This document shows positions 19,239-49,920 of a DNA stretch of 64,000 bases, piece after piece. Origin of the DNA: Minutocellus sp. GHC0000111 (taxonomy: Eukaryota). Each line of letters begins with the position of its first letter. Positions within the stretch are counted from its first letter, which is position 1. A program made the translations under genes and the position numbers. The notes under the pieces were generated by a model, which was not told where the DNA came from, did no database searches, and saw nothing but the letters and a program-made list of their open reading frames with translations. The stretch lies in NCBI GenBank assembly GCA_977018835.1, contig OZ361258.1, forward strand, positions 992,001-1,056,000. The letters run 5' to 3'.

Positions 19239-19333
19239 ATAGTGTTAATGTCTTTACACATGTATTAAATAAATGTTACACGTCTACAAATTATTTATAG
19301 ATCTACATGTAAGATGCAGCAGCATTGGTTTGT

Positions 19334-20622: not shown

Positions 20623-20715
20623 CCAAAGACCCAAAAAACCGGGTCCCCGAAATTGCTGTCCCGGACCTCGAGGTCGCGGACAGCAGTTTCAGGGACCCGG
20701 TTTTCGGGTCTTTGG
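20623..20715. repeat. Abutting terminal inverted repeats forming a ~93-bp imperfect palindrome (representative junction)
   Basis: CCAAAGACCCAAAAAACCGGGTCCCCGAAATTGCTGTCCCGGACCT-CG-AGGTCGCGGACAGCAGTTTCAGGGACCCGGTTTTCGGGTCTTTGG. Confidence 0.95.
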
Positions 20716-22895: not shown

Positions 22896-22990
22896 ATAGT
22901 GTTAATGTCTTTACACATGTATTAAATAAATGTTACACGTCTACAAATTATTTATAGATCTACATGTAAGATGCAGCAGCATTGGTTTGT

Positions 22991-26552: not shown

Positions 26553-26647
26553 ATAGTGTTAATGTCTTTACACATGTATTAAATAAATGTTACACGTCTA
26601 CAAATTATTTATAGATCTACATGTAAGATGCAGCAGCATTGGTTTGT

Positions 26648-27790: not shown

Positions 27791-28556
27791 GGAAGCTTCT
27801 TGAAGCGCCAGTCGGCAGAAGTTGCCCAGTCTATTTGTGGTAATTGCTTGGTGGTCGGTTGTTGACGGATGTGTTTTGATTTGCTTGCTTTGCCGCGTGT
27901 TTTTCAAGGTGCGCGCAAACCGCCGTGTCGGAAAGTCCAAAGACCCAAAAAACCGGGTCCCCGAAATTGCTGTCCCGGACCTCGAGGTCGCGGACAGCAG
28001 TTTCAGGGACCCGGTTTTCGGGTCTTTGGGCAAAATCTCATAAAAATCAGCACAAACGCACGCAGCAAGCAGCATTTGTTTGCTATCGTCCTGTCTTCAA
28101 GATGGCGGTGACGGCAGTGCCGACGGCATCCGCTTCACGCAAGGGATAAGCGTGGTATCTCCAGAACGGGTTGGTCCTTGACCTTGGACCGACTCGGAGA
28201 CATCGATTTCATCTTCCCATGCCAGCGTCTGGCCGATTCACCCCATCCATCGCCCCTCCCGACTTCTGCCAGTTTTTCCGATGACAACCGGTCACCTCCT
28301 CCACCTCCCGACCCCACCACCACCTCCCAAATGCATTGATTCAAGTAGCCATATGGTTTGAGCTCCGATATCGGTCTCCATGGTCCCCATGATGGCGCAT
28401 CTCATGCGGTCCGGGTGACCCCGCGCCAAAATCGAGCGGGCCAAAAAAATCATCACCCGCCCGGCGCGCCCGCCACTCAATGAAACCTTCCTCATTTCCA
28501 ACCCACCCGACATACAAACTGTTGCTCTACTGCCACAAAACACTGCATCCAACACC

Positions 28557-30204
28557 ATGTTAATGCAAATGGCTGTTGCTGCTGCTGCCGCCACCGCAGC
28601 TGATGCGCCAGCATGTCGCCGCTCCCGTCGGTCCGGCAGCTCCATCCCATGCTTTGATTGTTTTGTCCATCGGAGCGGCACCATCGATGCCTCTACGATT
28701 CGTGGCAAGTCTCCTGGGATGATCCAGACCATAGCGAACCGGGCATGGGCGGGCCTCTCACTTCAGAAACAGCAGGATATTGTGGAGCAAGCCCGAGAGG
28801 AGGAGCTGTGCTGTCCGAGCCAGACCGGTCCTGATCCGGCACAAGATGTGCCGATTTCTCAAATTCAAATTGCTCGGCGCAATTCGTCATCCAATAACGC
28901 CGATGCCAGCCCTGAGCCGACGGTCGAGGACAATGCTGGCATCGCTGCTCGTCCTGGTGATGACAATGTCGAAGCTGGGGGCATCGCCGAGTCCATGGTG
29001 GTGGATGGAAGCGGCAACAGTGAAGAATCTGGCAATCCTGCCAGTGTCGGTGTTTCTGCTACCGGCACCGCCAATTCTGGTGGATCGACCGAGGAGAATT
29101 TGGATGTGCTGCTGGTTGAGGCCGAAGCGCAACACAAAGCTGCAGAGGAGGCTTTGAAAGGGCTAAGGGACTCCATGAAACGAGAAAAGCGGAAGGATGA
29201 AAAGGCCATGGCCGATGCCGAAAAGGAACAAAATGAAGGATGAGAACGGCAATTTACCGAATGGAAAGAAGCGAGTTCTCCTCGTGCATTACGATGAGAA
29301 ATGGTTCTGGGGTCTCGTCCTCCGAGCTTTTGCGAAGGCTTGCGAGGAAATCGGCGTGAAAAAGCGAGATTACGCGGCCTTTCACAGGAGCCACATCAAC
29401 AAGGTCATGGCCATTGCATTTGTTGCCGCTGTCTTTGACGGTTCTCTTGAGAGTGGGTGCGAGGTTGTAAAACTGCCACTGGTACGAGCTCAAGCTCCTA
29501 AAATGGCGGAGCGAGCTCAGCACGAAGCAGCATCACAGCCTGATGGTTCAACACGGCACCCAAATACCAACCCCGATGGGACACCAAAGGAACCTCTTCG
29601 CCGGAAAGGAGAGTCGTTTCTTGTTGATTGTTGCGTTACTGGATCGAACGAAGGCACCAAAACGGATCCGAAATGCTCTTTGCTCCTCGTATTCAAGGAG
29701 ACCATTTTCCCAGCGATTCTCAACCTTGTCGGTCCGGGCAAGCAATACGAAGATTGCCATGTTATTATCCAGGGCGACCAGGCCGGGCCTCACGAGGACG
29801 GAGCCTTCACGCAATTTGTTACTAACTTCTGTGCTGAGCAAGGCTGGACGTGGCAGCCACAGGCACCGCAGATGCCTCACGCCAATGTCCTTGACTTGAG
29901 CGTGTTCCCCGCGATGAGCCGGCGGCACTCGGAATGGGCACGAAAAATGGTAGGCACCTCCGTCATTTCCACCGACCAGATCTGGGACACTGCCGAGGAC
30001 GTTTACGATAGCATGCCTAACTGCAAAATTGCTTCGGCCTTCATTCAGTGCTGGAGGATAATGGGCCTGGTGATTAAGGCCGGTGGTAGCAATGAGTTTG
30101 TTGGAAGGTTGGGTGACGAAAACTTGCACACTGGAATTAGGATCGACTTCAACGAAACGGCCAAGGGGATGGAGCCCTCAGCTCGTCATCCTTCTAATAA
30201 ATAG
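28557..30204 (+). pseudogene. Frameshifted transposase (unit 4)
   Basis: GCCGAAAAGG versus GCCGAGAAGAAAAGG in other units; ORF split into 228 aa and 335 aa pieces. Confidence 0.85.
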
Positions 30205-30299
30205 ATAGTGTTAATGTCTTTACACATGTATTAAATAAATGTTACACGTCTACAAATTATTTATAGATCTACATGTAAGATGCAGCAGCATTGGTTTGT

Positions 30300-31442
30300 T
30301 TATGTCACGGTGGGCTTCTTTGTTCTTCTATTTCTACCGGTGTTCTTTTTTGCCTCCTTGGCCTTCTTATGATCATTAGAAAGCCACACAGCGTGGAGGG
30401 ACTGACGAATCTTTCCGCGCTTCACACCATGTGCATCGGCAAGTTTGTTGTCAGTGAGGGCAGGGTGAGCAGTTGGTTGTTTACTCCCATCCTCATATCC
30501 CAACTTACATGCATCTAATGCAATCTTGTCAGTAGATAATGCAATAGAGAATTCTATTGTCTTGTTATCATACAATCCGAGTTCTCTGCTTCTCCACCCT
30601 TTCGGGTAGGCACCACGACCCTCTCTTACTTGGCGATCGACTTCGATCATGCCTAGCACTGTGGTGACCGCGACCTCGCTACCCCAACCAGGAACTTGTT
30701 TGAAGGGGAGGTAGACCCCTTTCTCTTTTCTTCTTGGTTCGGGCCTCTGACTACATGTGGGTGACTTGTAGTTCTTTATGTCTTGTGGTAGTGGTGCTTC
30801 TCCGTACGTCAAAAAGCACACAAGCCTCCGATGTTCCTCAACCTCTCGTTCAATCTGTCGTTCGGTTGGTTCGGTTGGAGGCAAGGGCTCCAAGATGGTA
30901 GGGGATGACAATTGAAGGTTGCTGAACGACGGGCATGAGCGGCTTGGGGTAAGAGCATACTGAGTATGAACTGACATTGGACTTGTTACCATGGGCGTGG
31001 CGGAGGGAAGGTCGAATGAGCTCACGGGCTTTCTCCTCTCGCCGCTTGGCTTTGCGTCGGCGGTTGCTATGCTCATCTCTGAGAATGAATCATCTTCATC
31101 AGAATGAGATGAAACGGTAGCGGTACCGCGAAAGTCGGCACGCAATATGTCATGATGCAAGTACTTCCTTGCTTGGGCTTGTTCGGCGGCGAAGCCATCC
31201 TCTTCGTTGTACTCGCGTCGATATTTCAACACACGAGGAGATGTGAGGTCTGACGATGCCGGTGGGACCCCTTGGTTGTCCTCCTCGTCATCGTTGTCCT
31301 TGTTCTCTCGATGCCGCGGATGTTCCGGCGTTTCGTTGGAAGTTTCCTTCTCATGGCGCGAGGGGCTGAATGCAGTCGCCTCGGCGCGTTTCGGTGGACG
31401 CGGTGGACTGAAGATGTGCCCCTTTGGAGTATCCATGAGCAT
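30300..31442 (-). CDS. Transposon ORF2 (unit 4; Y->C, Y->H variants)
   Basis: LDACKLG and ADAHGV versus LDAYKLG and ADAYGV. Confidence 0.65.
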   Translation of the reverse strand: MLMDTPKGHIFSPPRPPKRAEATAFSPSRHEKETSNETPEHPRHRENKDNDDEEDNQGVPPASSDLTSPRVLKYRREYNEEDGFAAEQAQARKYLHHDILRADFRGTATVSSHSDEDDSFSEMSIATADAKPSGERRKPVSSFDLPSATPMVTSPMSVHTQYALTPSRSCPSFSNLQLSSPTILEPLPPTEPTERQIEREVEEHRRLVCFLTYGEAPLPQDIKNYKSPTCSQRPEPRRKEKGVYLPFKQVPGWGSEVAVTTVLGMIEVDRQVREGRGAYPKGWRSRELGLYDNKTIEFSIALSTDKIALDACKLGYEDGSKQPTAHPALTDNKLADAHGVKRGKIRQSLHAVWLSNDHKKAKEAKKNTGRNRRTKKPTVT

Positions 31443-32208
31443 GGAAGCTTCTTGAAGCGCCAGTCGGCAGAAGTTGCCCAGTCTATTTGTGGTAATTGCT
31501 TGGAGGTCGGTTGTTGACGGATGTGTTTTGATTTGCTTGCTTTGCCGCGTGTTTTTCAAGGTGCGCGCAAACCGCCGTGTCGGAAAGTCCAAAGACCCAA
31601 AAAACCGGGTCCCCGAAATTGCTGTCCCGGACCTCGAGGTCGCGGACAGCAGTTTCAGGGACCCGGTTTTCGGGTCTTTGGGCAAAATCTCATAAAAATC
31701 AGCACAAACGCACGCAGCAAGCAGCATTTGTTTGCTATCGTCCTGTCTTCAAGATGGCGGTGACGGCAGTGCCGACGGCATCCGCTTCACGCAAGGGATA
31801 AGCGTGGTATCTCCAGAACGGGTTGGTCCTTGACCTTGGACCGACTCGGAGACATCGATTTCATCTTCCCATGCCAGCGTCTGGCCGATTCACCCCATCC
31901 ATCGCCCCTCCCGACTTCTGCCAGTTTTTCCGATGACAACCGGTCACCTCCTCCACCTCCCGACCCCACCACCACCTCCCAAATGCATTGATTCAAGTAG
32001 CCATATGGTTTGAGCTCCGATATCGGTCTCCATGGTCCCCATGATGGCGCATCTCATGCGGTCCGGGTGACCCCGCGCCAAAATCGAGCGGGCCAAAAAA
32101 ATCATCACCCGCCCGGCGCGCCCGCCACTCAATGAAACCTTCCTCATTTCCAACCCACCCGACATACAAACTGTTGCTCTACTGCCACAAAACACTGCAT
32201 CCAACACC

Positions 32209-33861
32209 ATGTTAATGCAAATGGCTGTTGCTGCTGCTGCCGCCACCGCAGCTGATGCGCCAGCATGTCGCCGCTCCCGTCGGTCCGGCAGCTCCATCCC
32301 ATGCTTTGATTGTTTTGTCCATCGGAGCGGCACCATCGATGCCTCTACGATTCGTGGCAAGTCTCCTGGGATGATCCAGACCATAGCGAACCGGGCATGG
32401 GCGGGCCTCTCACTTCAGAAACAGCAGGATATTGTGGAGCAAGCCCGAGAGGAGGAGCTGTGCTGTCCGAGCCAGACCGGTCCTGATCCGGCACAAGATG
32501 TGCCGATTTCTCAAATTCAAATTGCTCGGCGCAATTCGTCATCCAATAACGCCGATGCCAGCCCTGAGCCGACGGTCGAGGACAATGCTGGCATCGCTGC
32601 TCGTCCTGGTGATGACAATGTTGAAGCTGGGGGCATCGCCGAGTCCATGGTGGTGGATGGAAGCGGCAACAGTGAAGAATCTGGCAATCCTGCCAGTGTC
32701 GGTGTTTCTGCTACCGGCACCGCCAATTCTGGTGGATCGACCGAGGAGAATTTGGATGTGCTGCTGGTTGAGGCCGAAGCGCAACACAAAGCTGCAGAGG
32801 AGGCTTTGAAAGGGCTAAGGGACTCCTTGAAACGAGAAAAGCGGAAGGATGAAAAGGCCATGGCCGATGCCGAGAAGAAAAGGAACAAAATGAAGGATGA
32901 GAACGGCAATTTACCGAATGGAAAGAAGCGAGTTCTCCTCGTGCATTGCGATGAGAAATGGTTCTGGGGTCTCGTCCTCCGAGCTTTTGCGAAGGCTTGC
33001 GAGGAAATCGGCGTGAAAAAGCGAGATTACGCGGCCTTTCACAGGAGCCACATCAACAAGGTCATGGCCATTGCATTTGTTGCCGCTGTCTTTGACGGTT
33101 CTCTTGAGAGTGGGTGCGAGGTTGTAAAACTGCCACTGGTACGAGCTCAAGCTCCTAAAATAGCGGAGCGAGCTCAGCACGAAGCAGCATCACAGCCTGA
33201 TGGTTCAACACGGCACCCAAATACCAACCCCGATGGGACACCAAAGGAACCTCTTCGCCGGAAAGGAGAGTCGTTTCTTGTTGATTGTTGCGTTACTGGA
33301 TCGAACGAAGGCACCAAAACGGATCCGAAATGCTCTTTGCTCCTCGTATTCAAGGAGACCATTTTCCCAGCGATTCTCAACCTTGTCGGTCCGGGCAAGC
33401 AATACGAAGATTGCCATGTTATTATCCAGGGCGACCAGGCCGGGCCTCACGAGGACGGAGCCTTCACGCAATTTGTTACTAACTTCTGTGCTGAGCAAGG
33501 CTGGACGTGGCAGCCACAGGCACCGCAGATGCCTCACGCCAACGTCCTTGACTTGAGCGTGTTCCCCGCGATGAGCCGGCGGCACTCGGAATGGGCACGA
33601 AAAATGGTAGGCACCTCCGTCATTTCCACCGACCAGATCTGGGACACTGCCGAGGACGTTTACGATAGCATGCCTAACTGCAAAATTGCTTCGGCCTTCA
33701 TTCAGTGCTGGAGGATAATGGGCCTGGTGATTAAGGCCGGTGGTAGCAATGAGTTTGTTGGAAGGTTGGGTGACGAAAACTTGCACACTGGAATTAGGAT
33801 CGACTTCAACGAAACGGCCAAGGGGATGGAGCCCTCAGCTCGTCATCCTTCTAATAAATAG
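32209..33861 (+). CDS. DD38D transposase (unit 5; HCDEKWF)
   Basis: TAC->TGC at 32948, next to the first catalytic Asp. Confidence 0.9.
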   Translation: MLMQMAVAAAAATAADAPACRRSRRSGSSIPCFDCFVHRSGTIDASTIRGKSPGMIQTIANRAWAGLSLQKQQDIVEQAREEELCCPSQTGPDPAQDVPISQIQIARRNSSSNNADASPEPTVEDNAGIAARPGDDNVEAGGIAESMVVDGSGNSEESGNPASVGVSATGTANSGGSTEENLDVLLVEAEAQHKAAEEALKGLRDSLKREKRKDEKAMADAEKKRNKMKDENGNLPNGKKRVLLVHCDEKWFWGLVLRAFAKACEEIGVKKRDYAAFHRSHINKVMAIAFVAAVFDGSLESGCEVVKLPLVRAQAPKIAERAQHEAASQPDGSTRHPNTNPDGTPKEPLRRKGESFLVDCCVTGSNEGTKTDPKCSLLLVFKETIFPAILNLVGPGKQYEDCHVIIQGDQAGPHEDGAFTQFVTNFCAEQGWTWQPQAPQMPHANVLDLSVFPAMSRRHSEWARKMVGTSVISTDQIWDTAEDVYDSMPNCKIASAFIQCWRIMGLVIKAGGSNEFVGRLGDENLHTGIRIDFNETAKGMEPSARHPSNK

Positions 33862-33956
33862 ATAGTGTTAATGTCTTTACACATGTATTAAATAAATGTT
33901 ACACGTCTACAAATTATTTATAGATCTACATGTAAGATGCAGCAGCATTGGTTTGT

Positions 33957-35099
33957 TTATGTCACGGTGGGCTTCTTTGTTCTTCTATTTCTACCGGTGT
34001 TCTTTTTTGCCTCCTTGGCCTTCTTATGATCATTAGAAAGCCACACAGCGTGGAGGGACTGACGAATCTTTCCGCGCTTCACACCATGTGCATCGGCAAG
34101 TTTGTTGTCAGTGAGGGCAGGGTGAGCAGTTGGTTGTTTACTCCCATCCTCATATCCCAACTTACATGCATCTAATGCAATCTTGTCAGTAGATAATGCA
34201 ATAGAGAATTCTATTGTCTTGTTATCATACAATCCGAGTTCTCTGCTTCTCCACCCTTTCGGGTAGGCACCACGACCCTCTCTTACTTGGCGATCGACTT
34301 CGATCATGCCTAGCACTGTGGTGACCGCGACCTCGCTACCCCAACCAGGAACTTGTTTGAAGGGGAGGTAGACCCCTTTCTCTTTTCTTCTTGGTTCGGG
34401 CCTCTGACTACATGTGGGTGACTTGTAGTTCTTTATGTCTTGTGGTAGTGGTGCTTCTCCGTACGTCAAAAAGCACACAAGCCTCCGATGTTCCTCAACC
34501 TCTCGTTCAATCTGTCGTTCGGTTGGTTCGGTTGGAGGCAAGGGCTCCAAGATGGTAGGGGATGACAATTGAAGGTTGCTGAACGACGGGCATGAGCGGC
34601 TTGGGGTAAGAGCATACTGAGTATGAACTGACATTGGACTTGTTACCATGGGCGTGGCGGAGGGAAGGTCGAATGAGCTCACGGGCTTTCTCCTCTCGCC
34701 GCTTGGCTTTGCGTCGGCGGTTGCTATGCTCATCTCTGAGAATGAATCATCTTCATCAGAATGAGATGAAACGGTAGCGGTACCGCGAAAGTCGGCACGC
34801 AATATGTCATGATGCAAGTACTTCCTTGCTTGGGCTTGTTCGGCGGCGAAGCCATCCTCTTCGTTGTACTCGCGTCGATATTTCAACACACGAGGAGATG
34901 TGAGGTCTGACGATGCCGGTGGGACCCCTTGGTTGTCCTCCTCGTCATCGTTGTCCTTGTTCTCTCGATGCCGCGGATGTTCCGGCGTTTCGTTGGAAGT
35001 TTCCTTCTCATGGCGCGAGGGGCTGAATGCAGTCGCCTCGGCGCGTTTCGGTGGACGCGGTGGACTGAAGATGTGCCCCTTTGGAGTATCCATGAGCAT
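33957..35099 (-). CDS. Transposon ORF2 (unit 5)
   Basis: As unit 4. Confidence 0.65.
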   Translation of the reverse strand: MLMDTPKGHIFSPPRPPKRAEATAFSPSRHEKETSNETPEHPRHRENKDNDDEEDNQGVPPASSDLTSPRVLKYRREYNEEDGFAAEQAQARKYLHHDILRADFRGTATVSSHSDEDDSFSEMSIATADAKPSGERRKPVSSFDLPSATPMVTSPMSVHTQYALTPSRSCPSFSNLQLSSPTILEPLPPTEPTERQIEREVEEHRRLVCFLTYGEAPLPQDIKNYKSPTCSQRPEPRRKEKGVYLPFKQVPGWGSEVAVTTVLGMIEVDRQVREGRGAYPKGWRSRELGLYDNKTIEFSIALSTDKIALDACKLGYEDGSKQPTAHPALTDNKLADAHGVKRGKIRQSLHAVWLSNDHKKAKEAKKNTGRNRRTKKPTVT

Positions 35100-35865
35100 G
35101 GAAGCTTCTTGAAGCGCCAGTCGGCAGAAGTTGCCCAGTCTATTTGTGGTAATTGCTTGGAGGTCGGTTGTTGACGGATGTGTTTTGATTTGCTTGCTTT
35201 GCCGCGTGTTTTTCAAGGTGCGCGCAAACCGCCGTGTCGGAAAGTCCAAAGACCCAAAAAACCGGGTCCCCGAAATTGCTGTCCCGGACCTCGAGGTCGC
35301 GGACAGCAGTTTCAGGGACCCGGTTTTCGGGTCTTTGGGCAAAATCTCATAAAAATCAGCACAAACGCACGCAGCAAGCAGCATTTGTTTGCTATCGTCC
35401 TGTCTTCAAGATGGCGGTGACGGCAGTGCCGACGGCATCCGCTTCACGCAAGGGATAAGCGTGGTATCTCCAGAACGGGTTGGTCCTTGACCTTGGACCG
35501 ACTCGGAGACATCGATTTCATCTTCCCATGCCAGCGTCTGGCCGATTCACCCCATCCATCGCCCCTCCCGACTTCTGCCAGTTTTTCCGATGACAACCGG
35601 TCACCTCCTCCACCTCCCGACCCCACCACCACCTCCCAAATGCATTGATTCAAGTAGCCATATGGTTTGAGCTCCGATATCGGTCTCCATGGTCCCCATG
35701 ATGGCGCATCTCATGCGGTCCGGGTGACCCCGCGCCAAAATCGAGCGGGCCAAAAAAATCATCACCCGCCCGGCGCGCCCGCCACTCAATGAAACCTTCC
35801 TCATTTCCAACCCACCCGACATACAAACTGTTGCTCTACTGCCACAAAACACTGCATCCAACACC

Positions 35866-37518
35866 ATGTTAATGCAAATGGCTGTTGCTGCTGCTGCCGC
35901 CACCGCAGCTGATGCGCCAGCATGTCGCCGCTCCCGTCGGTCCGGCAGCTCCATCCCATGCTTTGATTGTTTTGTCCATCGGAGCGGCACCATCGATGCC
36001 TCTACGATTCGTGGCAAGTCTCCTGGGATGATCCAGACCATAGCGAACCGGGCATGGGCGGGCCTCTCACTTCAGAAACAGCAGGATATTGTGGAGCAAG
36101 CCCGAGAGGAGGAGCTGTGCTGTCCGAGCCAGACCGGTCCTGATCCGGCACAAGATGTGCCGATTTCTCAAATTCAAATTGCTCGGCGCAATTCGTCATC
36201 CAATAACGCCGATGCCAGCCCTGAGTCGACGGTCGAGGACAATGCTGGCATCGCTGCTCGTCCTGGTGATGACAATGTTGAAGCTGGGGGCATCGCCGAG
36301 TCCATGGTGGTGGATGGAAGCGGCAACAGTGAAGAATCTGGCAATCCTGCCAGTGTCGGTGTTTCTGCTACCGGCACCGCCAATTCTGGTGGATCGACCG
36401 AGGAGAATTTGGATGTGCTGCTGGTTGAGGCCGAAGCGCAACACAAAGCTGCAGAGGAGGCTTTGAAAGGGCTAAGGGACTCCTTGAAACGAGAAAAGCG
36501 GAAGGATGAAAAGGCCATGGCCGATGCCGAGAAGAAAAGGAACAAAATGAAGGATGAGAACGGCAATTTACCGAATGGAAAGAAGCGAGTTCTCCTCGTG
36601 CATTGCGATGAGAAATGGTTCTGGGGTCTCGTCCTCCGAGCTTTTGCGAAGGCTTGCGAGGAAATCGGCGTGAAAAAGCGAGATTACGCGGCCTTTCACA
36701 GGAGCCACATCAACAAGGTCATGGCCATTGCATTTGTTGCCGCTGTCTTTGACGGTTCTCTTGAGAGTGGGTGCGAGGTTGTAAAACTGCCACTGGTACG
36801 AGCTCAAGCTCCTAAAATAGCGGAGCGAGCTCAGCACGAAGCAGCATCACAGCCTGATGGTTCAACACGGCACCCAAATACCAACCCCGATGGGACACCA
36901 AAGGAACCTCTTCGCCGGAAAGGAGAGTCGTTTCTTGTTGATTGTTGCGTTACTGGATCGAACGAAGGCACCAAAACGGATCCGAAATGCTCTTTGCTCC
37001 TCGTATTCAAGGAGACCATTTTCCCAGCGATTCTCAACCTTGTCGGTCCGGGCAAGCAATACGAAGATTGCCATGTTATTATCCAGGGCGACCAGGCCGG
37101 GCCTCACGAGGACGGAGCCTTCACGCAATTTGTTACTAACTTCTGTGCTGAGCAAGGCTGGACGTGGCAGCCACAGGCACCGCAGATGCCTCACGCCAAC
37201 GTCCTTGACTTGAGCGTGTTCCCCGCGATGAGCCGGCGGCACTCGGAATGGGCACGAAAAATGGTAGGCACCTCCGTCATTTCCACCGACCAGATCTGGG
37301 ACACTGCCGAGGACGTTTACGATAGCATGCCTAACTGCAAAATTGCTTCGGCCTTCATTCAGTGCTGGAGGATAATGGGCCTGGTGATTAAGGCCGGTGG
37401 TAGCAATGAGTTTGTTGGAAGGTTGGGTGACGAAAACTTGCACACTGGAATTAGGATCGACTTCAACGAAACGGCCAAGGGGATGGAGCCCTCAGCTCGT
37501 CATCCTTCTAATAAATAG
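35866..37518 (+). CDS. DD38D transposase (unit 6; HCDEKWF, P->S)
   Basis: Variants at 36226 and 36605. Confidence 0.9.
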   Translation: MLMQMAVAAAAATAADAPACRRSRRSGSSIPCFDCFVHRSGTIDASTIRGKSPGMIQTIANRAWAGLSLQKQQDIVEQAREEELCCPSQTGPDPAQDVPISQIQIARRNSSSNNADASPESTVEDNAGIAARPGDDNVEAGGIAESMVVDGSGNSEESGNPASVGVSATGTANSGGSTEENLDVLLVEAEAQHKAAEEALKGLRDSLKREKRKDEKAMADAEKKRNKMKDENGNLPNGKKRVLLVHCDEKWFWGLVLRAFAKACEEIGVKKRDYAAFHRSHINKVMAIAFVAAVFDGSLESGCEVVKLPLVRAQAPKIAERAQHEAASQPDGSTRHPNTNPDGTPKEPLRRKGESFLVDCCVTGSNEGTKTDPKCSLLLVFKETIFPAILNLVGPGKQYEDCHVIIQGDQAGPHEDGAFTQFVTNFCAEQGWTWQPQAPQMPHANVLDLSVFPAMSRRHSEWARKMVGTSVISTDQIWDTAEDVYDSMPNCKIASAFIQCWRIMGLVIKAGGSNEFVGRLGDENLHTGIRIDFNETAKGMEPSARHPSNK

Positions 37519-37613
37519 ATAGTGTTAATGTCTTTACACATGTATTAAATAAATGTTACACGTCTACAAATTATTTATAGATCTACATGTAAGATGCAGC
37601 AGCATTGGTTTGT

Positions 37614-38756: not shown

Positions 38757-39522
38757 GGAAGCTTCTTGAAGCGCCAGTCGGCAGAAGTTGCCCAGTCTAT
38801 TTGTGGTAATTGCTTGGAGGTCGGTTGTTGACGGATGTGTTTTGATTTGCTTGCTTTGCCGCGTGTTTTTCAAGGTGCGCGCAAACCGCCGTGTCGGAAA
38901 GTCCAAAGACCCAAAAAACCGGGTCCCCGAAATTGCTGTCCCGGACCTCGAGGTCGCGGACAGCAGTTTCAGGGACCCGGTTTTCGGGTCTTTGGGCAAA
39001 ATCTCATAAAAATCAGCACAAACGCACGCAGCAAGCAGCATTTGTTTGCTATCGTCCTGTCTTCAAGATGGCGGTGACGGCAGTGCCGACGGCATCCGCT
39101 TCACGCAAGGGATAAGCGTGGTATCTCCAGAACGGGTTGGTCCTTGACCTTGGACCGACTCGGAGACATCGATTTCATCTTCCCATGCCAGCGTCTGGCC
39201 GATTCACCCCATCCATCGCCCCTCCCGACTTCTGCCAGTTTTTCCGATGACAACCGGTCACCTCCTCCACCTCCCGACCCCACCACCACCTCCCAAATGC
39301 ATTGATTCAAGTAGCCATATGGTTTGAGCTCCGATATCGGTCTCCATGGTCCCCATGATGGCGCATCTCATGCGGTCCGGGTGACCCCGCGCCAAAATCG
39401 AGCGGGCCAAAAAAATCATCACCCGCCCGGCGCGCCCGCCACTCAATGAAACCTTCCTCATTTCCAACCCACCCGACATACAAACTGTTGCTCTACTGCC
39501 ACAAAACACTGCATCCAACACC

Positions 39523-41175: not shown

Positions 41176-41270
41176 ATAGTGTTAATGTCTTTACACATGT
41201 ATTAAATAAATGTTACACGTCTACAAATTATTTATAGATCTACATGTAAGATGCAGCAGCATTGGTTTGT

Positions 41271-42413
41271 TTATGTCACGGTGGGCTTCTTTGTTCTTCT
41301 ATTTCTACCGGTGTTCTTTTTTGCCTCCTTGGCCTTCTTATGATCATTAGAAAGCCACACAGCGTGGAGGGACTGACGAATCTTTCCGCGCTTCACACCA
41401 TGTGCATCGGCAAGTTTGTTGTCAGTGAGGGCAGGGTGAGCAGTTGGTTGTTTACTCCCATCCTCATATCCCAACTTACATGCATCTAATGCAATCTTGT
41501 CAGTAGATAATGCAATAGAGAATTCTATTGTCTTGTTATCATACAATCCGAGTTCTCTGCTTCTCCACCCTTTCGGGTAGGCACCACGACCCTCTCTTAC
41601 TTGGCGATCGACTTCGATCATGCCTAGCACTGTGGTGACCGCGACCTCGCTACCCCAACCAGGAACTTGTTTGAAGGGGAGGTAGACCCCTTTCTCTTTT
41701 CTTCTTGGTTCGGGCCTCTGACTACATGTGGGTGACTTGTAGTTCTTTATGTCTTGTGGTAGTGGTGCTTCTCCGTACGTCAAAAAGCACACAAGCCTCC
41801 GATGTTCCTCAACCTCTCGTTCAATCTGTCGTTCGGTTGGTTCGGTTGGAGGCAAGGGCTCCAAGATGGTAGGGGATGACAATTGAAGGTTGCTGAACGA
41901 CGGGCATGAGCGGCTTGGGGTAAGAGCATACTGAGTATGAACTGACATTGGACTTGTTACCATGGGCGTGGCGGAGGGAAGGTCGAATGAGCTCACGGGC
42001 TTTCTCCTCTCGCCGCTTGGCTTTGCGTCGGCGGTTGCTATGCTCATCTCTGAGAATGAATCATCTTCATCAGAATGAGATGAAACGGTAGCGGTACCGC
42101 GAAAGTCGGCACGCAATATGTCATGATGCAAGTACTTCCTTGCTTGGGCTTGTTCGGCGGCGAAGCCATCCTCTTCGTTGTACTCGCGTCGATATTTCAA
42201 CACACGAGGAGATGTGAGGTCTGACGATGCCGGTGGGACCCCTTGGTTGTCCTCCTCGTCATCGTTGTCCTTGTTCTCTCGATGCCGCGGATGTTCCGGC
42301 GTTTCGTTGGAAGTTTCCTTCTCATGGCGCGAGGGGCTGAATGCAGTCGCCTCGGCGCGTTTCGGTGGACGCGGTGGACTGAAGATGTGCCCCTTTGGAG
42401 TATCCATGAGCAT
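41271..42413 (-). CDS. Transposon ORF2 (unit 7)
   Basis: As unit 4. Confidence 0.65.
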   Translation of the reverse strand: MLMDTPKGHIFSPPRPPKRAEATAFSPSRHEKETSNETPEHPRHRENKDNDDEEDNQGVPPASSDLTSPRVLKYRREYNEEDGFAAEQAQARKYLHHDILRADFRGTATVSSHSDEDDSFSEMSIATADAKPSGERRKPVSSFDLPSATPMVTSPMSVHTQYALTPSRSCPSFSNLQLSSPTILEPLPPTEPTERQIEREVEEHRRLVCFLTYGEAPLPQDIKNYKSPTCSQRPEPRRKEKGVYLPFKQVPGWGSEVAVTTVLGMIEVDRQVREGRGAYPKGWRSRELGLYDNKTIEFSIALSTDKIALDACKLGYEDGSKQPTAHPALTDNKLADAHGVKRGKIRQSLHAVWLSNDHKKAKEAKKNTGRNRRTKKPTVT

Positions 42414-43179
42414 GGAAGCTTCTTGAAGCGCCAGTCGGCAGAAGTTGCCCAGTCTATTTGTGGTAATTGCTTGGAGGTCGGTTGTTGACGGATGTGTTTT
42501 GATTTGCTTGCTTTGCCGCGTGTTTTTCAAGGTGCGCGCAAACCGCCGTGTCGGAAAGTCCAAAGACCCAAAAAACCGGGTCCCCGAAATTGCTGTCCCG
42601 GACCTCGAGGTCGCGGACAGCAGTTTCAGGGACCCGGTTTTCGGGTCTTTGGGCAAAATCTCATAAAAATCAGCACAAACGCACGCAGCAAGCAGCATTT
42701 GTTTGCTATCGTCCTGTCTTCAAGATGGCGGTGACGGCAGTGCCGACGGCATCCGCTTCACGCAAGGGATAAGCGTGGTATCTCCAGAACGGGTTGGTCC
42801 TTGACCTTGGACCGACTCGGAGACATCGATTTCATCTTCCCATGCCAGCGTCTGGCCGATTCACCCCATCCATCGCCCCTCCCGACTTCTGCCAGTTTTT
42901 CCGATGACAACCGGTCACCTCCTCCACCTCCCGACCCCACCACCACCTCCCAAATGCATTGATTCAAGTAGCCATATGGTTTGAGCTCCGATATCGGTCT
43001 CCATGGTCCCCATGATGGCGCATCTCATGCGGTCCGGGTGACCCCGCGCCAAAATCGAGCGGGCCAAAAAAATCATCACCCGCCCGGCGCGCCCGCCACT
43101 CAATGAAACCTTCCTCATTTCCAACCCACCCGACATACAAACTGTTGCTCTACTGCCACAAAACACTGCATCCAACACC

Positions 43180-44832
43180 ATGTTAATGCAAATGGCTGTT
43201 GCTGCTGCTGCCGCCACCGCAGCTGATGCGCCAGCATGTCGCCGCTCCCGTCGGTCCGGCAGCTCCATCCCATGCTTTGATTGTTTTGTCCATCGGAGCG
43301 GCACCATCGATGCCTCTACGATTCGTGGCAAGTCTCCTGGGATGATCCAGACCATAGCGAACCGGGCATGGGCGGGCCTCTCACTTCAGAAACAGCAGGA
43401 TATTGTGGAGCAAGCCCGAGAGGAGGAGCTGTGCTGTCCGAGCCAGACCGGTCCTGATCCGGCACAAGATGTGCCGATTTCTCAAATTCAAATTGCTCGG
43501 CGCAATTCGTCATCCAATAACGCCGATGCCAGCCCTGAGCCGACGGTCGAGGACAATGCTGGCATCGCTGCTCGTCCTGGTGATGACAATGTCGAAGCTG
43601 GGGGCATCGCCGAGTCCATGGTGGTGGATGGAAGCGGCAACAGTGAAGAATCTGGCAATCCTGCCAGTGTCGGTGTTTCTGCTACCGGCACCGCCAATTC
43701 TGGTGGATCGACCGAGGAGAATTTGGATGTGCTGCTGGTTGAGGCCGAAGCGCAACACAAAGCTGCAGAGGAGGCTTTGAAAGGGCTAAGGGACTCCTTG
43801 AAACGAGAAAAGCGGAAGGATGAAAAGGCCGTGGCCGATGCCGAGAAGAAAAGGAACAAAATGAAGGATGAGAACGGCAATTTACCGAATGGAAAGAAGC
43901 GAGTTCTCCTCGTGCATTACGATGAGAAATGGTTCTGGGTTCTCGTCCTCCGAGCTTTTGCGAAGGCTTGCGAGGAAATCGGCGTGAAAAAGCGAGATTA
44001 CGCGGCCTTTCACAGGAGCCACATCAACAAGGTCATGGCCATTGCATTTGTTGCCGCTGTCTTTGACGGTTCTCTTGAGAGTGGGTGCGAGGTTGTAAAA
44101 CTGCCACTGGTACGAGCTCAAGCTCCTAAAATAGCGGAGCGAGCTCAGCACGAAGCAGCATCACAGCCTGATGGTTCAACACGGCACCCAAATACCAACC
44201 CCGATGGGACACCAAAGGAACCTCTTCGCCGGAAAGGAGAGTCGTTTCTTGTTGATTGTTGCGTTACTGGATCGAACGAAGGCACCAAAACGGATCCGAA
44301 ATGCTCTTTGCTCCTCGTATTCAAGGAGACCATTTTCCCAGCGATTCTCAACCTTGTCGGTCCGGGCAAGCAATACGAAGATTGCCATGTTATTATCCAG
44401 GGCGACCAGGCCGGGCCTCACGAGGACGGAGCCTTCACGCAATTTGTTACTAACTTCTGTGCTGAGCAAGGCTGGACGTGGCAGCCACAGGCACCGCAGA
44501 TGCCTCACGCCAACGTCCTTGACTTGAGCGTGTTCCCCGCGATGAGCCGGCGGCACTCGGAATGGGCACGAAAAATGGTAGGCACCTCCGTCATTTCCAC
44601 CGACCAGATCTGGGACACTGCCGAGGACGTTTACGATAGCATGCCTAACTGCAAAATTGCTTCGGCCTTCATTCAGTACTGGAGGATAATGGGCCTGGTG
44701 ATTAAGGCCGGTGGTAGCAATGAGTTTGTTGGAAGGTTGGGTGACGAAAACTTGCACACTGGAATTAGGATCGACTTCAACGAAACGGCCAAGGGGATGG
44801 AGCCCTCAGCTCGTCATCCTTCTAATAAATAG
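43180..44832 (+). CDS. DD38D transposase (unit 8; M->V, G->V, QYW)
   Basis: Variants at 43831, 43940 and 44678. Confidence 0.9.
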   Translation: MLMQMAVAAAAATAADAPACRRSRRSGSSIPCFDCFVHRSGTIDASTIRGKSPGMIQTIANRAWAGLSLQKQQDIVEQAREEELCCPSQTGPDPAQDVPISQIQIARRNSSSNNADASPEPTVEDNAGIAARPGDDNVEAGGIAESMVVDGSGNSEESGNPASVGVSATGTANSGGSTEENLDVLLVEAEAQHKAAEEALKGLRDSLKREKRKDEKAVADAEKKRNKMKDENGNLPNGKKRVLLVHYDEKWFWVLVLRAFAKACEEIGVKKRDYAAFHRSHINKVMAIAFVAAVFDGSLESGCEVVKLPLVRAQAPKIAERAQHEAASQPDGSTRHPNTNPDGTPKEPLRRKGESFLVDCCVTGSNEGTKTDPKCSLLLVFKETIFPAILNLVGPGKQYEDCHVIIQGDQAGPHEDGAFTQFVTNFCAEQGWTWQPQAPQMPHANVLDLSVFPAMSRRHSEWARKMVGTSVISTDQIWDTAEDVYDSMPNCKIASAFIQYWRIMGLVIKAGGSNEFVGRLGDENLHTGIRIDFNETAKGMEPSARHPSNK

Positions 44833-44927
44833 ATAGTGTTAATGTCTTTACACATGTATTAAATAAATGTTACACGTCTACAAATTATTTATAGATCTAC
44901 ATGTAAGATGCAGCAGCACTGGTTTGT

Positions 44928-46070
44928 TCATGTCACGGTGGGCTTCTTTGTTCTTCTATTTCTACCGGTGTTCTTTTTTGCCTCCTTGGCCTTCTTATGA
45001 TCATTAGAAAGCCACACAGCGTGGAGGGACTGACGAATCTTTCCGCGCTTCACACCATATGCATCGGCAAGTTTGTTGTCAGTGAGGGCAGGGTGAGCAG
45101 TTGGTTGTTTACTCCCATCCTCATATCCCAACTTATATGCATCTAATGCAATCTTGTCAGTAGATAATGCAATAGAGAATTCTATTGTCTTGTTATCATA
45201 CAATCCGAGTTCTCTGCTTCTCCACCCTTTCGGGTAGGCACCACGACCCTCTCTTACTTGGCGATCGACTTCGATCATGCCTAGCACTGTGGTGACCGCG
45301 ACCTCGCTACCCCAACCAGGAACTTGTTTGAAGGGGAGGTAGACCCCTTTCTCTTTTCTTCTTGGTTCGGGCCTCTGACTACATGTGGGTGACTTGTAGT
45401 TCTTTATGTCTTGTGGTAGTGGTGCTTCTCCGTACGTCAAAAAGCACACAAGCCTCCGATGTTCCTCAACCTCTCGTTCAATCTGTCGTTCGGTTGGTTC
45501 GGTTGGAGGCAAGGGCTCCAAGATGGTAGGGGATGACAATTGAAGGTTGCTGAACGACGGGCATGAGCGGCTTGGGGTAAGAGCATACTGAGTATGAACT
45601 GACATTGGACTTGTTACCATGGGCGTGGCGGAGGGAAGGTCGAATGAGCTCACGGGCTTTCTCCTCTCGCCGCTTGGCTTTGCGTCGGCGGTTGCTATGC
45701 TCATCTCTGAGAATGAATCATCTTCATCAGAATGAGATGAAACGGTAGCGGTACCGCGAAAGTCGGCACGCAATATGTCATGATGCAAGTACTTCCTTGC
45801 TTGGGCTTGTTCGGCGGCGAAGCCATCCTCTTCGTTGTACTCGCGTCGATATTTCAACACACGAGGAGATGTGAGGTCTGACGATGCCGGTGGGACCCCT
45901 TGGTTGTCCTCCTCGTCATCGTTGTCCTTGTTCTCTCGATGCCGCGGATGTTCCGGCGTTTCGTTGGAAGTTTCCTTCTCATGGCGCGAGGGGCTGAATG
46001 CAGTCGCCTCGGCGCGTTTCGGTGGACGCGGTGGACTGAAGATGTGCCCCTTTGGAGTATCCATGAGCAT
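44928..46070 (-). CDS. Transposon ORF2 (unit 8; stop TAA->TGA)
   Basis: Retains both Tyr; T->C at 44929 converts the stop to TGA. Confidence 0.65.
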   Translation of the reverse strand: MLMDTPKGHIFSPPRPPKRAEATAFSPSRHEKETSNETPEHPRHRENKDNDDEEDNQGVPPASSDLTSPRVLKYRREYNEEDGFAAEQAQARKYLHHDILRADFRGTATVSSHSDEDDSFSEMSIATADAKPSGERRKPVSSFDLPSATPMVTSPMSVHTQYALTPSRSCPSFSNLQLSSPTILEPLPPTEPTERQIEREVEEHRRLVCFLTYGEAPLPQDIKNYKSPTCSQRPEPRRKEKGVYLPFKQVPGWGSEVAVTTVLGMIEVDRQVREGRGAYPKGWRSRELGLYDNKTIEFSIALSTDKIALDAYKLGYEDGSKQPTAHPALTDNKLADAYGVKRGKIRQSLHAVWLSNDHKKAKEAKKNTGRNRRTKKPTVT

Positions 46071-46836
46071 GGAAGCTTCTTGAAGCGCCAGTCGGCAGAA
46101 GTTGCCCAGTCTATTTGTGGTAATTGCTTGGAGGTCGGTTGTTGACGGATGTGTTTTGATTTGCTTGCTTTGCCGCGTGTTTTTCAAGGTGCGCGCAAAC
46201 CGCCGTGTCGGAAAGTCCAAAGACCCAAAAAACCGGGTCCCCGAAATTGCTGTCCCGGACCTCGAGGTCGCGGACAGCAGTTTCAGGGACCCGGTTTTCG
46301 GGTCTTTGGGCAAAATCTCATAAAAATCAGCACAAACGCACGCAGCAAGCAGCATTTGTTTGCTATCGTCCTGTCTTCAAGATGGCGGTGACGGCAGTGC
46401 CGACGGCATCCGCTTCACGCAAGGGATAAGCGTGGTATCTCCAGAACGGGTTGGTCCTTGACCTTGGACCGACTCGGAGACATCGATTTCATCTTCCCAT
46501 GCCAGCGTCTGGCCGATTCACCCCATCCATCGCCCCTCCCGACTTCTGCCAGTTTTTCCGATGACAACCGGTCACCTCCTCCACCTCCCGACCCCACCAC
46601 CACCTCCCAAATGCATTGATTCAAGTAGCCATATGGTTTGAGCTCCGATATCGGTCTCCATGGTCCCCATGATGGCGCATCTCATGCGGTCCGGGTGACC
46701 CCGCGCCAAAATCGAGCGGGCCAAAAAAATCATCACCCGCCCGGCGCGCCCGCCACTCAATGAAACCTTCCTCATTTCCAACCCACCCGACATACAAACT
46801 GTTGCTCTACTGCCACAAAACACTGCATCCAACACC

Positions 46837-48489
46837 ATGTTAATGCAAATGGCTGTTGCTGCTGCTGCCGCCACCGCAGCTGATGCGCCAGCATGTCGCC
46901 GCTCCCGTCGGTCCGGCAGCTCCATCCCATGCTTTGATTGTTTTGTCCATCGGAGCGGCACCATCGATGCCTCTACGATTCGTGGCAAGTCTCCTGGGAT
47001 GATCCAGACCATAGCGAACCGGGCATGGGCGGGCCTCTCACTTCAGAAACAGCAGGATATTGTGGAGCAAGCCCGAGAGGAGGAGCTGTGCTGTCCGAGC
47101 CAGACCGGTCCTGATCCGGCACAAGATGTGCCGATTTCTCAAATTCAAATTGCTCGGCGCAATTCGTCATCCAATAACGCCGATGCCAGCCCTGAGCCGA
47201 CGGTCGAGGACAATGCTGGCATCGCTGCTCGTCCTGGTGATGACAATGTTGAAGCTGGGGGCATCGCCGAGTCCATGGTGGTGGATGGAAGCGGCAACAG
47301 TGAAGAATCTGGCAATCCTGCCAGTGTCGGTGTTTCTGCTACCGGCACCGCCAATTCTGGTGGATCGACCGAGGAGAATTTGGATGTGCTGCTGGTTGAG
47401 GCCGAAGCGCAACACAAAGCTGCAGAGGAGGCTTTGAAAGGGCTAAGGGACTCCTTGAAACGAGAAAAGCGGAAGGATGAAAAGGCCATGGCCGATGCCG
47501 AGAAGAAAAGGAACAAAATGAAGGATGAGAACGGCAATTTACCGAATGGAAAGAAGCGAGTTCTCCTCGTGCATTGCGATGAGAAATGGTTCTGGGGTCT
47601 CGTCCTCCGAGCTTTTGCGAAGGCTTGCGAGGAAATCGGCGTGAAAAAGCGAGATTACGCGGCCTTTCACAGGAGCCACATCAACAAGGTCATGGCCATT
47701 GCATTTGTTGCCGCTGTCTTTGACGGTTCTCTTGAGAGTGGGTGCGAGGTTGTAAAACTGCCACTGGTACGAGCTCAAGCTCCTAAAATAGCGGAGCGAG
47801 CTCAGCACGAAGCAGCATCACAGCCTGATGGTTCAACACGGCACCCAAATACCAACCCCGATGGGACACCAAAGGAACCTCTTCGCCGGAAAGGAGAGTC
47901 GTTTCTTGTTGATTGTTGCGTTACTGGATCGAACGAAGGCACCAAAACGGATCCGAAATGCTCTTTGCTCCTCGTATTCAAGGAGACCATTTTCCCAGCG
48001 ATTCTCAACCTTGTCGGTCCGGGCAAGCAATACGAAGATTGCCATGTTATTATCCAGGGCGACCAGGCCGGGCCTCACGAGGACGGAGCCTTCACGCAAT
48101 TTGTTACTAACTTCTGTGCTGAGCAAGGCTGGACGTGGCAGCCACAGGCACCGCAGATGCCTCACGCCAACGTCCTTGACTTGAGCGTGTTCCCCGCGAT
48201 GAGCCGGCGGCACTCGGAATGGGCACGAAAAATGGTAGGCACCTCCGTCATTTCCACCGACCAGATCTGGGACACTGCCGAGGACGTTTACGATAGCATG
48301 CCTAACTGCAAAATTGCTTCGGCCTTCATTCAGTACTGGAGGATAATGGGCCTGGTGATTAAGGCCGGTGGTAGCAATGAGTTTGTTGGAAGGTTGGGTG
48401 ACGAAAACTTGCACACTGGAATTAGGATCGACTTCAACGAAACGGCCAAGGGGATGGAGCCCTCAGCTCGTCATCCTTCTAATAAATAG
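46837..48489 (+). CDS. DD38D transposase (unit 9; HCDEKWF, QYW)
   Basis: Variants at 47576 and 48335. Confidence 0.9.
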   Translation: MLMQMAVAAAAATAADAPACRRSRRSGSSIPCFDCFVHRSGTIDASTIRGKSPGMIQTIANRAWAGLSLQKQQDIVEQAREEELCCPSQTGPDPAQDVPISQIQIARRNSSSNNADASPEPTVEDNAGIAARPGDDNVEAGGIAESMVVDGSGNSEESGNPASVGVSATGTANSGGSTEENLDVLLVEAEAQHKAAEEALKGLRDSLKREKRKDEKAMADAEKKRNKMKDENGNLPNGKKRVLLVHCDEKWFWGLVLRAFAKACEEIGVKKRDYAAFHRSHINKVMAIAFVAAVFDGSLESGCEVVKLPLVRAQAPKIAERAQHEAASQPDGSTRHPNTNPDGTPKEPLRRKGESFLVDCCVTGSNEGTKTDPKCSLLLVFKETIFPAILNLVGPGKQYEDCHVIIQGDQAGPHEDGAFTQFVTNFCAEQGWTWQPQAPQMPHANVLDLSVFPAMSRRHSEWARKMVGTSVISTDQIWDTAEDVYDSMPNCKIASAFIQYWRIMGLVIKAGGSNEFVGRLGDENLHTGIRIDFNETAKGMEPSARHPSNK

Positions 48490-48584
48490 ATAGTGTTAAT
48501 GTCTTTACACATGTATTAAATAAATGTTACACGTCTACAAATTATTTATAGATCTACATGTAAGATGCAGCAGCATTGGTTTGT

Positions 48585-49727
48585 TTATGTCACGGTGGGC
48601 TTCTTTGTTCTTCTATTTCTACCGGTGTTCTTTTTTGCCTCCTTGGCCTTCTTATGATCATTAGAAAGCCACACAGCGTGGAGGGACTGACGAATCTTTC
48701 CGCGCTTCACACCATGTGCATCGGCAAGTTTGTTGTCAGTGAGGGCAGGGTGAGCAGTTGGTTGTTTACTCCCATCCTCATATCCCAACTTACATGCATC
48801 TAATGCAATCTTGTCAGTAGATAATGCAATAGAGAATTCTATTGTCTTGTTATCATACAATCCGAGTTCTCTGCTTCTCCACCCTTTCGGGTAGGCACCA
48901 CGACCCTCTCTTACTTGGCGATCGACTTCGATCATGCCTAGCACTGTGGTGACCGCGACCTCGCTACCCCAACCAGGAACTTGTTTGAAGGGGAGGTAGA
49001 CCCCTTTCTCTTTTCTTCTTGGTTCGGGCCTCTGACTACATGTGGGTGACTTGTAGTTCTTTATGTCTTGTGGTAGTGGTGCTTCTCCGTACGTCAAAAA
49101 GCACACAAGCCTCCGATGTTCCTCAACCTCTCGTTCAATCTGTCGTTCGGTTGGTTCGGTTGGAGGCAAGGGCTCCAAGATGGTAGGGGATGACAATTGA
49201 AGGTTGCTGAACGACGGGCATGAGCGGCTTGGGGTAAGAGCATACTGAGTATGAACTGACATTGGACTTGTTACCATGGGCGTGGCGGAGGGAAGGTCGA
49301 ATGAGCTCACGGGCTTTCTCCTCTCGCCGCTTGGCTTTGCGTCGGCGGTTGCTATGCTCATCTCTGAGAATGAATCATCTTCATCAGAATGAGATGAAAC
49401 GGTAGCGGTACCGCGAAAGTCGGCACGCAATATGTCATGATGCAAGTACTTCCTTGCTTGGGCTTGTTCGGCGGCGAAGCCATCCTCTTCGTTGTACTCG
49501 CGTCGATATTTCAACACACGAGGAGATGTGAGGTCTGACGATGCCGGTGGGACCCCTTGGTTGTCCTCCTCGTCATCGTTGTCCTTGTTCTCTCGATGCC
49601 GCGGATGTTCCGGCGTTTCGTTGGAAGTTTCCTTCTCATGGCGCGAGGGGCTGAATGCAGTCGCCTCGGCGCGTTTCGGTGGACGCGGTGGACTGAAGAT
49701 GTGTCCCTTTGGAGTATCCATGAGCAT
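48585..49727 (-). CDS. Transposon ORF2 (unit 9)
   Basis: As unit 4; in frame with the upstream host ORF (48585-50426). Confidence 0.65.
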   Translation of the reverse strand: MLMDTPKGHIFSPPRPPKRAEATAFSPSRHEKETSNETPEHPRHRENKDNDDEEDNQGVPPASSDLTSPRVLKYRREYNEEDGFAAEQAQARKYLHHDILRADFRGTATVSSHSDEDDSFSEMSIATADAKPSGERRKPVSSFDLPSATPMVTSPMSVHTQYALTPSRSCPSFSNLQLSSPTILEPLPPTEPTERQIEREVEEHRRLVCFLTYGEAPLPQDIKNYKSPTCSQRPEPRRKEKGVYLPFKQVPGWGSEVAVTTVLGMIEVDRQVREGRGAYPKGWRSRELGLYDNKTIEFSIALSTDKIALDACKLGYEDGSKQPTAHPALTDNKLADAHGVKRGKIRQSLHAVWLSNDHKKAKEAKKNTGRNRRTKKPTVT

Positions 49728-49920
49728 GGAAGCTTCTTGAAGCGCCAGTCGGCAGAAGTTGCCCAGTCTATTTGTGGTAATTGCTTGGAGGTCGTTGTTG
49801 ACGGATGTGTTTTGATTTGCTTGCTTTGCCGCGTGTTTTTCAAGGTGCGCGCAAACCGCCGTGTCGGAAAGTCCAAAGACCCAAAAAACCGGGTCCCCAA
49901 AAATGCTGTCCCGGACCTCG

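Follow-up and report, generated by a model that had tools for sequence, protein, structure and literature searches.

Copies of two distantly related families of Tc1/mariner-type transposons, one of which forms a tandem array in the diatom Minutocellus sp. GHC0000111, lose the dinucleotide TpA to TpG or CpA approximately 25 to 50 times as often as they undergo other changes. The losses follow a ranking of four-base contexts and were laid down in layers, and we hold this description with high confidence. The array lies in contig OZ361258.1 of GenBank assembly GCA_977018835.1. The window analysed was the whole stretch of 64,000 nt at positions 992,001 to 1,056,000 of the forward strand; all coordinates below are positions in that window, and the array units are labelled U1 to U9. 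The substitution is a DNA-level, context-specific transition which affects both strands and is found in both families. The complete chain of events that we propose, up to and including adenine deamination by the host at TpA in silenced repeats, seems to us evenly poised between right and wrong.

Substitutions among the units of the array

Self-comparison of the window revealed a tandem array with a period of 3657 bp at 16689-49920, starting directly after a gap of 200 N. Together with alignment it gave nine head-to-tail transposon units of 3652-3658 bp on the forward strand (17012..49920), with U1 to U9 starting at 17012, 20670, 24327, 27984, 31636, 35293, 38950, 42607 and 46264, respectively. 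The initial annotation had set the start of the array at 27983; the first complete unit actually begins at 17012, and it is preceded by the 3' end of a partial tenth unit (16689..17011, forward strand). As this partial unit adjoins the assembly gap (16489-16688), the array is possibly longer than assembled.

Of the 27 variable columns in the nine-unit alignment, 8 were indels and 19 were substitutions; 17 of the substitutions lie outside the terminal inverted repeat. There were no substitutions among U1, U2 and U3, and the remaining units differed by 1-11. Fifteen of the 19 substitution columns were transitions, and eight of these toggle between TA and TG or CA (29505, 30431, 30508, 30780, 32948, 39699, 44678 and 44929). 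The count of 17 sites with eight of this type had been made by eye in the initial annotation, and all its coordinates were found to be correct. Other A:T/G:C transitions occur at 31419, 43831 and 44919, and changes at CpG at 29886 and 32622. Base composition predicts that 19.9% of transitions should toggle TA, so that eight in 15 is a significant excess even when the changes are left unpolarised (P = 0.004), in agreement with the enrichment first suspected. If they are polarised, 8/19 substitutions fall at TA sites, which comprise 5.4% of bases (P = 3e-6), and TA accounts for 8/11 of the A:T>G:C changes in the array. CpG changes were not enriched in the array (3/15 transitions, P = 0.30). At 44678/48335 it is U8 and U9 which retain the ancestral TA. 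The protein consequences were also as first described: HYDEKWF becomes HCDEKWF in U5, U6 and U9, AYK becomes ACK and AYG becomes AHG in U4-U7 and U9, and ATA becomes ATG (I>M) in U4. The sequence itself implies the change of TAA to TGA at 44929, which leaves a stop codon in place.

The units are mosaics of common variants, as would arise by gene conversion or unequal crossing-over, and the array adjoins a gap. GC-biased gene conversion among the repeats, or a collapsed array assembled with errors, might for these reasons be put forward as the source of the pattern. A four-base context, however, is not what biased conversion would lead one to expect. As for assembly errors, the derived alleles at 46940, 47576, 47842 and 48716 were recovered as minor alleles in contigs from public sequencing runs, among them runs of another sample and another study, and are therefore not errors of this assembly; the pattern is also present in dispersed copies of two families. 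The single-unit variants at 29505 and 44929 are known from the window assembly alone. We consider this explanation extremely improbable.

Direction and timing of the change

Four public runs were compared with the window over 46200-64000; runs with only a low word share were left out. Forty of the 558 differences, picked by support and not by context, were listed, 17 of them in U9 and 23 in the right flank, and the results below refer to these. At 13 of the 17 in U9, the unit has TG or CA where the commonest public-run copy has TA; one (47059) is the reverse, and three are other changes. Expressed per base, A:T>G:C differences were found at 13 of the 214 bases in TA and at one of the 1525 A/T bases elsewhere (P = 1e-11), which places 13/14 of the polarised A:T>G:C differences at TA and gives a rate of TA loss approximately 52-fold over that of all other changes.

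Distant outgroup loci were in accord with this polarity. TA is present in all three loci (L001-L003) at 47576, 47842 and 48335, and in L001 and L002 only at 46940 and 47059, ie at five of the six sites compared; at the sixth (47988) the outgroup has diverged and is uninformative. Since L001 and L002 carry TA at 47059, it is the commoner lineage that has lost TA in the reverse case. At 47014 and 47791, where U9 keeps TA and single units have lost it, the outgroup is not TA and gives no support for the polarity. The direction proposed in the initial annotation, loss of TpA, is thus supported.

Of the 13 losses in U9, nine are common to all nine units (46940, 47842, 47988, 48495, 48501, 48589, 48627, 48732 and 49725 in U9, each with TA in the commonest public-run copy). 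Among the columns that vary between units, five divide them into groups and three carry a loss confined to one unit. This layering implies that the process was active before, during and after amplification of the array.

Dispersed copies and a second family

Sister proteins of the arrayed element's transposase were compared. Four clusters (of 35, 22, 74 and 69) each contributed the 15 members listed for them, which with P0077 made a set of 61, and restriction to well-aligned positions with at least 15 copies left 460 codons. Each possible non-synonymous change was scored as a path, seen or unseen. TA-loss paths were seen in 23 of 44 cases compared to 21 of 380 for other A:T>G:C paths (P = 2e-14), while the corresponding figures for CpG, TA gain and transversions were 11/98, 4/83 and 36/1848. 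Per copy-site, the rate of TA loss was 0.078 and that of other A:T>G:C changes 0.0031, a 25-fold difference; TA gain was at 0.0013. Tyrosine was the most variable residue, with 21% of cells changed compared to no more than 5% for all others. The same tyrosines were converted to cysteine in some copies and to histidine in others, and they must therefore have been hit independently on both strands. The path counts (13/26 for A>G, 10/18 for T>C) bear out the original suggestion of A to G change on either strand of TpA, and differ from the one-strand A>G pattern of the ADAR type.

A second family, with 46-47% identity and carried by contigs whose lengths match, was represented by 15 of its 146 proteins. 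Tyrosine to cysteine or histidine was seen in 15/38 paths compared to 6/257 control paths, with eight changes to cysteine and seven to histidine. As so distant a family shows the same pattern, the process is not a property of one element. Transposase clusters from other organisms (P0005-P0007) gave 0/52 and 0/14 for the same paths, a result of little weight as their short contigs probably collapse copies.

The number of TA losses per copy ranged from 0 to 7 among 42 copies, with a mean of 2.3 and a variance of 4.1. This is overdispersed (P = 0.002, a value inflated by common ancestry), and the number was uncorrelated with other changes (rho -0.04). Full-length copies carried a mean of 1.3 losses (n = 19) and deleted copies 2.6 (n = 11, P = 0.017), with 12 copies unclassed and three of the 11 deleted copies array-like. 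The lower load could mean that selection favours unhit copies or that full-length copies are younger.

Sequence context

Contexts are written on the strand which reads A>G, with R a purine and Y a pyrimidine. In the sister proteins the change was seen in 16/17 RTAY, 5/12 YTAY, 2/9 RTAR and 0/6 YTAR paths, giving the ranking RTAY >> YTAY > RTAR > YTAR, with RTAY well separated from the rest (7/27, P = 8e-6). The RTAY pattern was noticed post hoc in the protein data and was then tested on separate DNA events: among ten of these 3' of the transposase frame, eight lie at RTAY compared to 32% of available sites (P = 0.003). TAC sites were as hot as TAT, and TAG was cold (0/5 paths in the proteins, 3/17 DNA events). 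Grouped by the 5' neighbour of the A, paths were seen in 23/44 cases for TA, 12/112 for CA, 5/114 for AA and 4/154 for GA. The CA events are mostly at CAY (10/48, compared to 2/64 otherwise), a weak secondary signal which could in part be subfamily variation.

Pol eta, which inserts G opposite T, prefers A after A or T (the WA motif), and error-prone synthesis of that kind during post-excision gap repair, rolling-circle amplification or heterochromatin replication would also generate A>G changes. Two changes of the expected type do occur at AA (44919 and 48088), and cut-and-paste elements undergo repair synthesis (PMC7827188). Changes at AA are not elevated, however (5/114 paths versus 23/44 at TA, P = 3e-11), which weakens the case for an error of the Pol eta type, and neither transversions (36/1848 paths) nor indels are raised in step with the TA losses. 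A polymerase origin in this general sense is therefore very unlikely.

Comparison with host DNA

For TpA, the observed/expected ratio stands at 0.48 in the unit, while host DNA gives 0.56 (left flank), 0.59 (right flank) and 0.45 (HSP101 coding sequence). The scarcity of TpA in the unit, at first taken as evidence, is thus nothing special beside host DNA and has no evidential value. Nor are the TA target sites of this transposon class erased, as had been proposed: the host flanks keep 509 and 448 TA steps, and targets remain.

The right flank (49923..64000), which carries host genes, was used as the control. Its 23 listed differences include 14 transitions, four of which toggle TA, where composition predicts 21%. 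The corresponding fraction in the element is 14/16 (P = 0.002), and none of the four flank changes is at RTAY. A genome-wide TpA bias, made visible in transposons by relaxed purifying selection and compositional disequilibrium, would be in keeping with the low TpA throughout the window (0.45-0.59), with an approximately threefold avoidance of TpA at synonymous host sites and with the small size of the flank control. A bias of 25-50-fold, however, would leave neutral host sites nearly free of TA, yet seven non-coding host stretches have ratios of 0.44-1.14. Of the TA steps, moreover, 35-37% are RTAY in the flanks and 24.5% in U1. We regard a genome-wide bias as unlikely to be the explanation. 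Because the control rejects a 25-fold rate and TA persists in non-coding host DNA, the strong component appears to be concentrated in transposons, and a weak genome-wide bias may exist alongside it. An equal rate in single-copy host DNA is rejected, on small numbers; a weaker host bias is compatible with the 14-transition control. The association with repeats claimed in the initial annotation therefore stands insofar as the signature is concentrated in transposon copies of two families, and is weakened insofar as the host may share it in milder form. On balance the signature is probably repeat-focused.

Proposed mechanism and related systems

Two kinds of known chemistry can be set aside. Class II elements have no RNA step in their life cycle, and this, with the symmetry of the strands, excludes RNA editing. 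The chemistry of repeat-induced point mutation (RIP) can be excluded because the change runs in the opposite direction. The remaining causes are enzymatic deamination of adenine, or a modified adenine or thymine which mispairs.

The closest precedent is the rhizarian Bigelowiella natans, in which integrated DNA of nucleocytoplasmic large DNA viruses and virophages undergoes TpA to TpG/CpA hypermutation (Mettrop et al., bioRxiv 10.64898/2026.01.13.699255). There the signature was measured in mutation-accumulation lines at approximately 1000-fold, an ADAT2-like deaminase was proposed, and DDE endonuclease and reverse transcriptase domains were reported among the TpA-depleted genes (10.64898/2026.01.13.699255). 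The two cases are alike in that both strands of foreign DNA are affected, that the change occurs in the DNA itself, and that it is uneven, between lines in B. natans and between copies here. They differ in host and target, a single-copy viral insert in a rhizarian as opposed to multi-copy class II transposons in a stramenopile; in strength, approximately 1000-fold as measured there compared to 25-50-fold inferred from copies here; and in the RTAY preference, which is absent from the main text of that paper, although its supplementary mutation table could show it. Nowhere does that main text use the word 'diatom'. Our literature search, which covered few subscription journals, found this one preprint on one rhizarian alga as the only account of a context-specific A:T>G:C mutator acting on mobile DNA, and no diatom paper.

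The chain that we favour starts with copies of the two distant families losing TA to TG or CA at the rates given above, with the RTAY-led ranking, weakly at CAY and not at AA or GA, in layers that for the array span its amplification; single-copy host DNA, on the small numbers available, lacks the signature at equal strength. Targeting would proceed through silent chromatin or through recognition of foreign DNA, and not through an enzyme of the element. A Tad2/ADAT-like or other deaminase-fold enzyme would then convert adenine to hypoxanthine, which would be read as G at replication. Codons for tyrosine, isoleucine and valine, and TA-rich signals, could in this way be slowly eroded, perhaps as a selected defence, perhaps not. 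We rank adenine deamination first on three grounds: the case of B. natans, a context ranking led by pyrimidine-A-pyrimidine, and the unequal number of losses per copy.

Several points weigh against this reading. TpA is its own reverse complement, so that a lesion of adenine is inseparable by sequence from one of thymine; the damaged base cannot be read off, and the term 'adenine-directed' in the initial annotation is not established. Known adenosine deaminase motifs fit RTAY poorly, TAG being cold: the motifs listed are 5'UAG for ADAR and 5'ACG for TadA/ADAT2 (PMC10661471). As CpG decay is not enriched, the array copies bear no sequence sign of silencing by 5-methylcytosine (5mC). The sister proteins are related by descent and may derive from the window's own assembly, and carrier counts are not independent, for which reason seen and unseen paths were given more weight than carriers. 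Only 40 of the 558 differences were visible for the comparison of polarity. Finally, the flank control rejects a rate of 25-fold (P = 0.002) but not one of 10-fold (P = 0.09), and T/(T+C) at host fourfold sites is 0.23 before A versus approximately 0.5 elsewhere, the threefold avoidance referred to above.

Instead of an editing enzyme, the mutations may be the by-product of an epigenetic mark: a modified thymine, such as 5-hydroxymethyluracil, or a modified adenine, written by an enzyme at RTAY in repeats, would mispair or decay as 5mC does at CpG, and the mutations would be a side effect of silencing. The decay of CpG shows a fold excess in a range similar to 25-50-fold, a value far below the approximately 1000-fold of B. 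natans. RTAY is self-complementary, as maintained marks are, and the losses build up gradually, in layers. Diatoms also carry DNMT4 enzymes, related to RID, whose function is undefined, and DNMT5 has been linked in diatoms to 5mC in transposons (PMC9998398). Against this, a mark in a TpA context is not described in the available part of 10.1101/2024.10.28.620566, which discusses eukaryotic N6-methyladenine (6mA) at ApT and, for P. tricornutum, gives 5mC only; and the overdispersed TA losses, which do not track other changes, point to episodes rather than a clock, with the proviso on ancestry made above. We regard the mark as rather doubtful, though deserving of serious consideration. The known mark 6mA at ApT was considered as a cause and is not favoured: in 8/17 DNA events the A is not followed by T, and TAC is as hot as TAT.

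RIP in Neurospora and other ascomycetes converts C:G to T:A, mainly at CpA, creating TpA and stop codons; it is set off by duplicated sequence in the premeiotic stage and depends on RID. It shares with the present case dinucleotide-specific transitions on both strands concentrated in repeats, and the RID-related DNMT4 of diatoms is a further link (PMC9998398), but the direction is opposite, and TA gain here is at background (4/83 paths). The likeness to a reverse RIP drawn in the initial annotation is not established, the closest precedent being a single-copy viral insert. Decay of 5mC at CpG is similar in that a self-complementary dinucleotide is lost by transitions in repeats; it differs in base pair and direction, and CpG loss is not enriched here. 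ADAR hyperediting and TadA/ADAT2-3 have the A>G outcome in common with the diatom elements, and ADAR also prefers U/T 5' of the A (PMC10661471); their substrates are RNA, whereas the element has no RNA step, and the 5'UAG of ADAR is cold here.

The description of the process as genome defence is likewise not established: no stop codons are created, the family is in the public runs approximately a hundredfold deeper than single-copy DNA, and full-length copies persist. It is a speculative and somewhat unlikely proposition that diatoms possess a dedicated double-stranded DNA adenine editor which recognises RTAY in transposons as a defence, a mirror of RIP with a common origin with the B. natans system, old within the stramenopile-alveolate-rhizarian group.

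Structure of the element and its locus

By its sequence features the arrayed element is an internally deleted copy of an IS630-Tc1-mariner transposon. The transposase-derived frame of U1 (17448..19238, forward strand, 596 aa stop to stop) contains a DDD triad with DD38D spacing (residues 294/455/494), and is frameshifted in U4, where a five-base deletion at 29219-29220, found in that unit only, shifts the frame. It lacks the middle part of full-length relatives (P0123, 999 aa), the deletion joint being near 47523 in U9; contigs from the public runs depart from the unit at 47523-47525, and for both reasons the arrayed form is an internal-deletion derivative. The full-length relatives contain the Tc1-type helix-turn-helix PF01498, and one Cylindrotheca homologue is annotated as a Tc1-like transposase. 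Pfam gave no match for the window's own deleted frame, and a sequence search of the PDB gave none for P0123. A second, convergent open frame (19334..20782, reverse strand, 482 aa stop to stop) is found in each unit and carries the AYK>ACK and AYG>AHG changes; it had no Pfam match, is absent from the aligned parts of L001-L003, and is possibly a captured gene. Features in common with the superfamily are the inverted repeats at the termini, the duplicated TA target, the DDD triad and, in full-length relatives, PF01498; the element differs from it in its DD38D spacing, internal deletion, second convergent frame and head-to-tail array without TA at the junctions.

In U9 the left terminal inverted repeat is at 46263..46310 (forward strand), its first two bases being common to the end of U8, and the right one at 49871..49922 (reverse strand), with a TA target site at 49921-49922. 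TA also borders other insertions of the element in the public runs, where contigs leave the unit at 46263/46264. Every junction between units (eg 46255-46272) consists of a single CG common to the neighbouring units, without TA, and the element ends in CG. Such junctions fit the joining of excised ends, as a circle or concatemer, through what would be self-complementary two-base overhangs, followed by amplification; they do not fit insertion of one copy next to another. The overhangs left by Sleeping Beauty and mariner are three bases long, and both can form circles (PMC7827188). No listed public-run contig bridged the head-to-tail junction, and the contigs which enter the right flank carry only 17-26 element bases, fewer than the 31-base rule of the tool asks for. 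In runs X1 and X4 the element was approximately hundredfold deeper than the flank, which is not an exact copy number.

To the left of the array, a host HSP101/ClpB gene (14392..16488, forward strand) is cut by the assembly gap. Its best named relatives, at 73-76% identity, are from Thalassiosira and other diatoms, and other relatives reach 96%. Over 14392-16688 the gene stops at the 200-N gap, and beyond the array it is not taken up again, so that the left flank may not truly adjoin the array. On the right, contigs of X1 and X4 join the element end to 50519 and exit the window at 50540, which suggests another insertion or a repeat at 50519-50540. The window also contains a helicase of the SNF2 family that has a RING finger and by eye resembles RAD5, at 9195-13420 (reverse strand), two adjacent membrane-anchored genes resembling metallophosphoesterases, probably paralogues, at 52582-57630 (forward strand), and short tandem duplications at 6279-6323 (22 bp x2) and 14241-14390 (approximately 72-77 bp x2, upstream of HSP101).

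Implications

The signature is real, polarised and ongoing within the history of the family, and it likely marks a host process which mutates mobile DNA. With it the TpA-loss signature reaches diatoms, which are a major lineage of the phytoplankton, as well as class II elements of an ordinary kind, and the window offers an early-stage case with polarised events and a four-base fingerprint, not depletion alone. The RTAY fingerprint provides a direct assay for the enzyme or base mark responsible. A deaminase, if that is the cause, would amount to a natural DNA adenine editor, and a mark to an epigenetic base not yet described. The signature also distorts age estimates and, through the conversion of tyrosine to cysteine or histidine, the protein annotation of diatom transposons.

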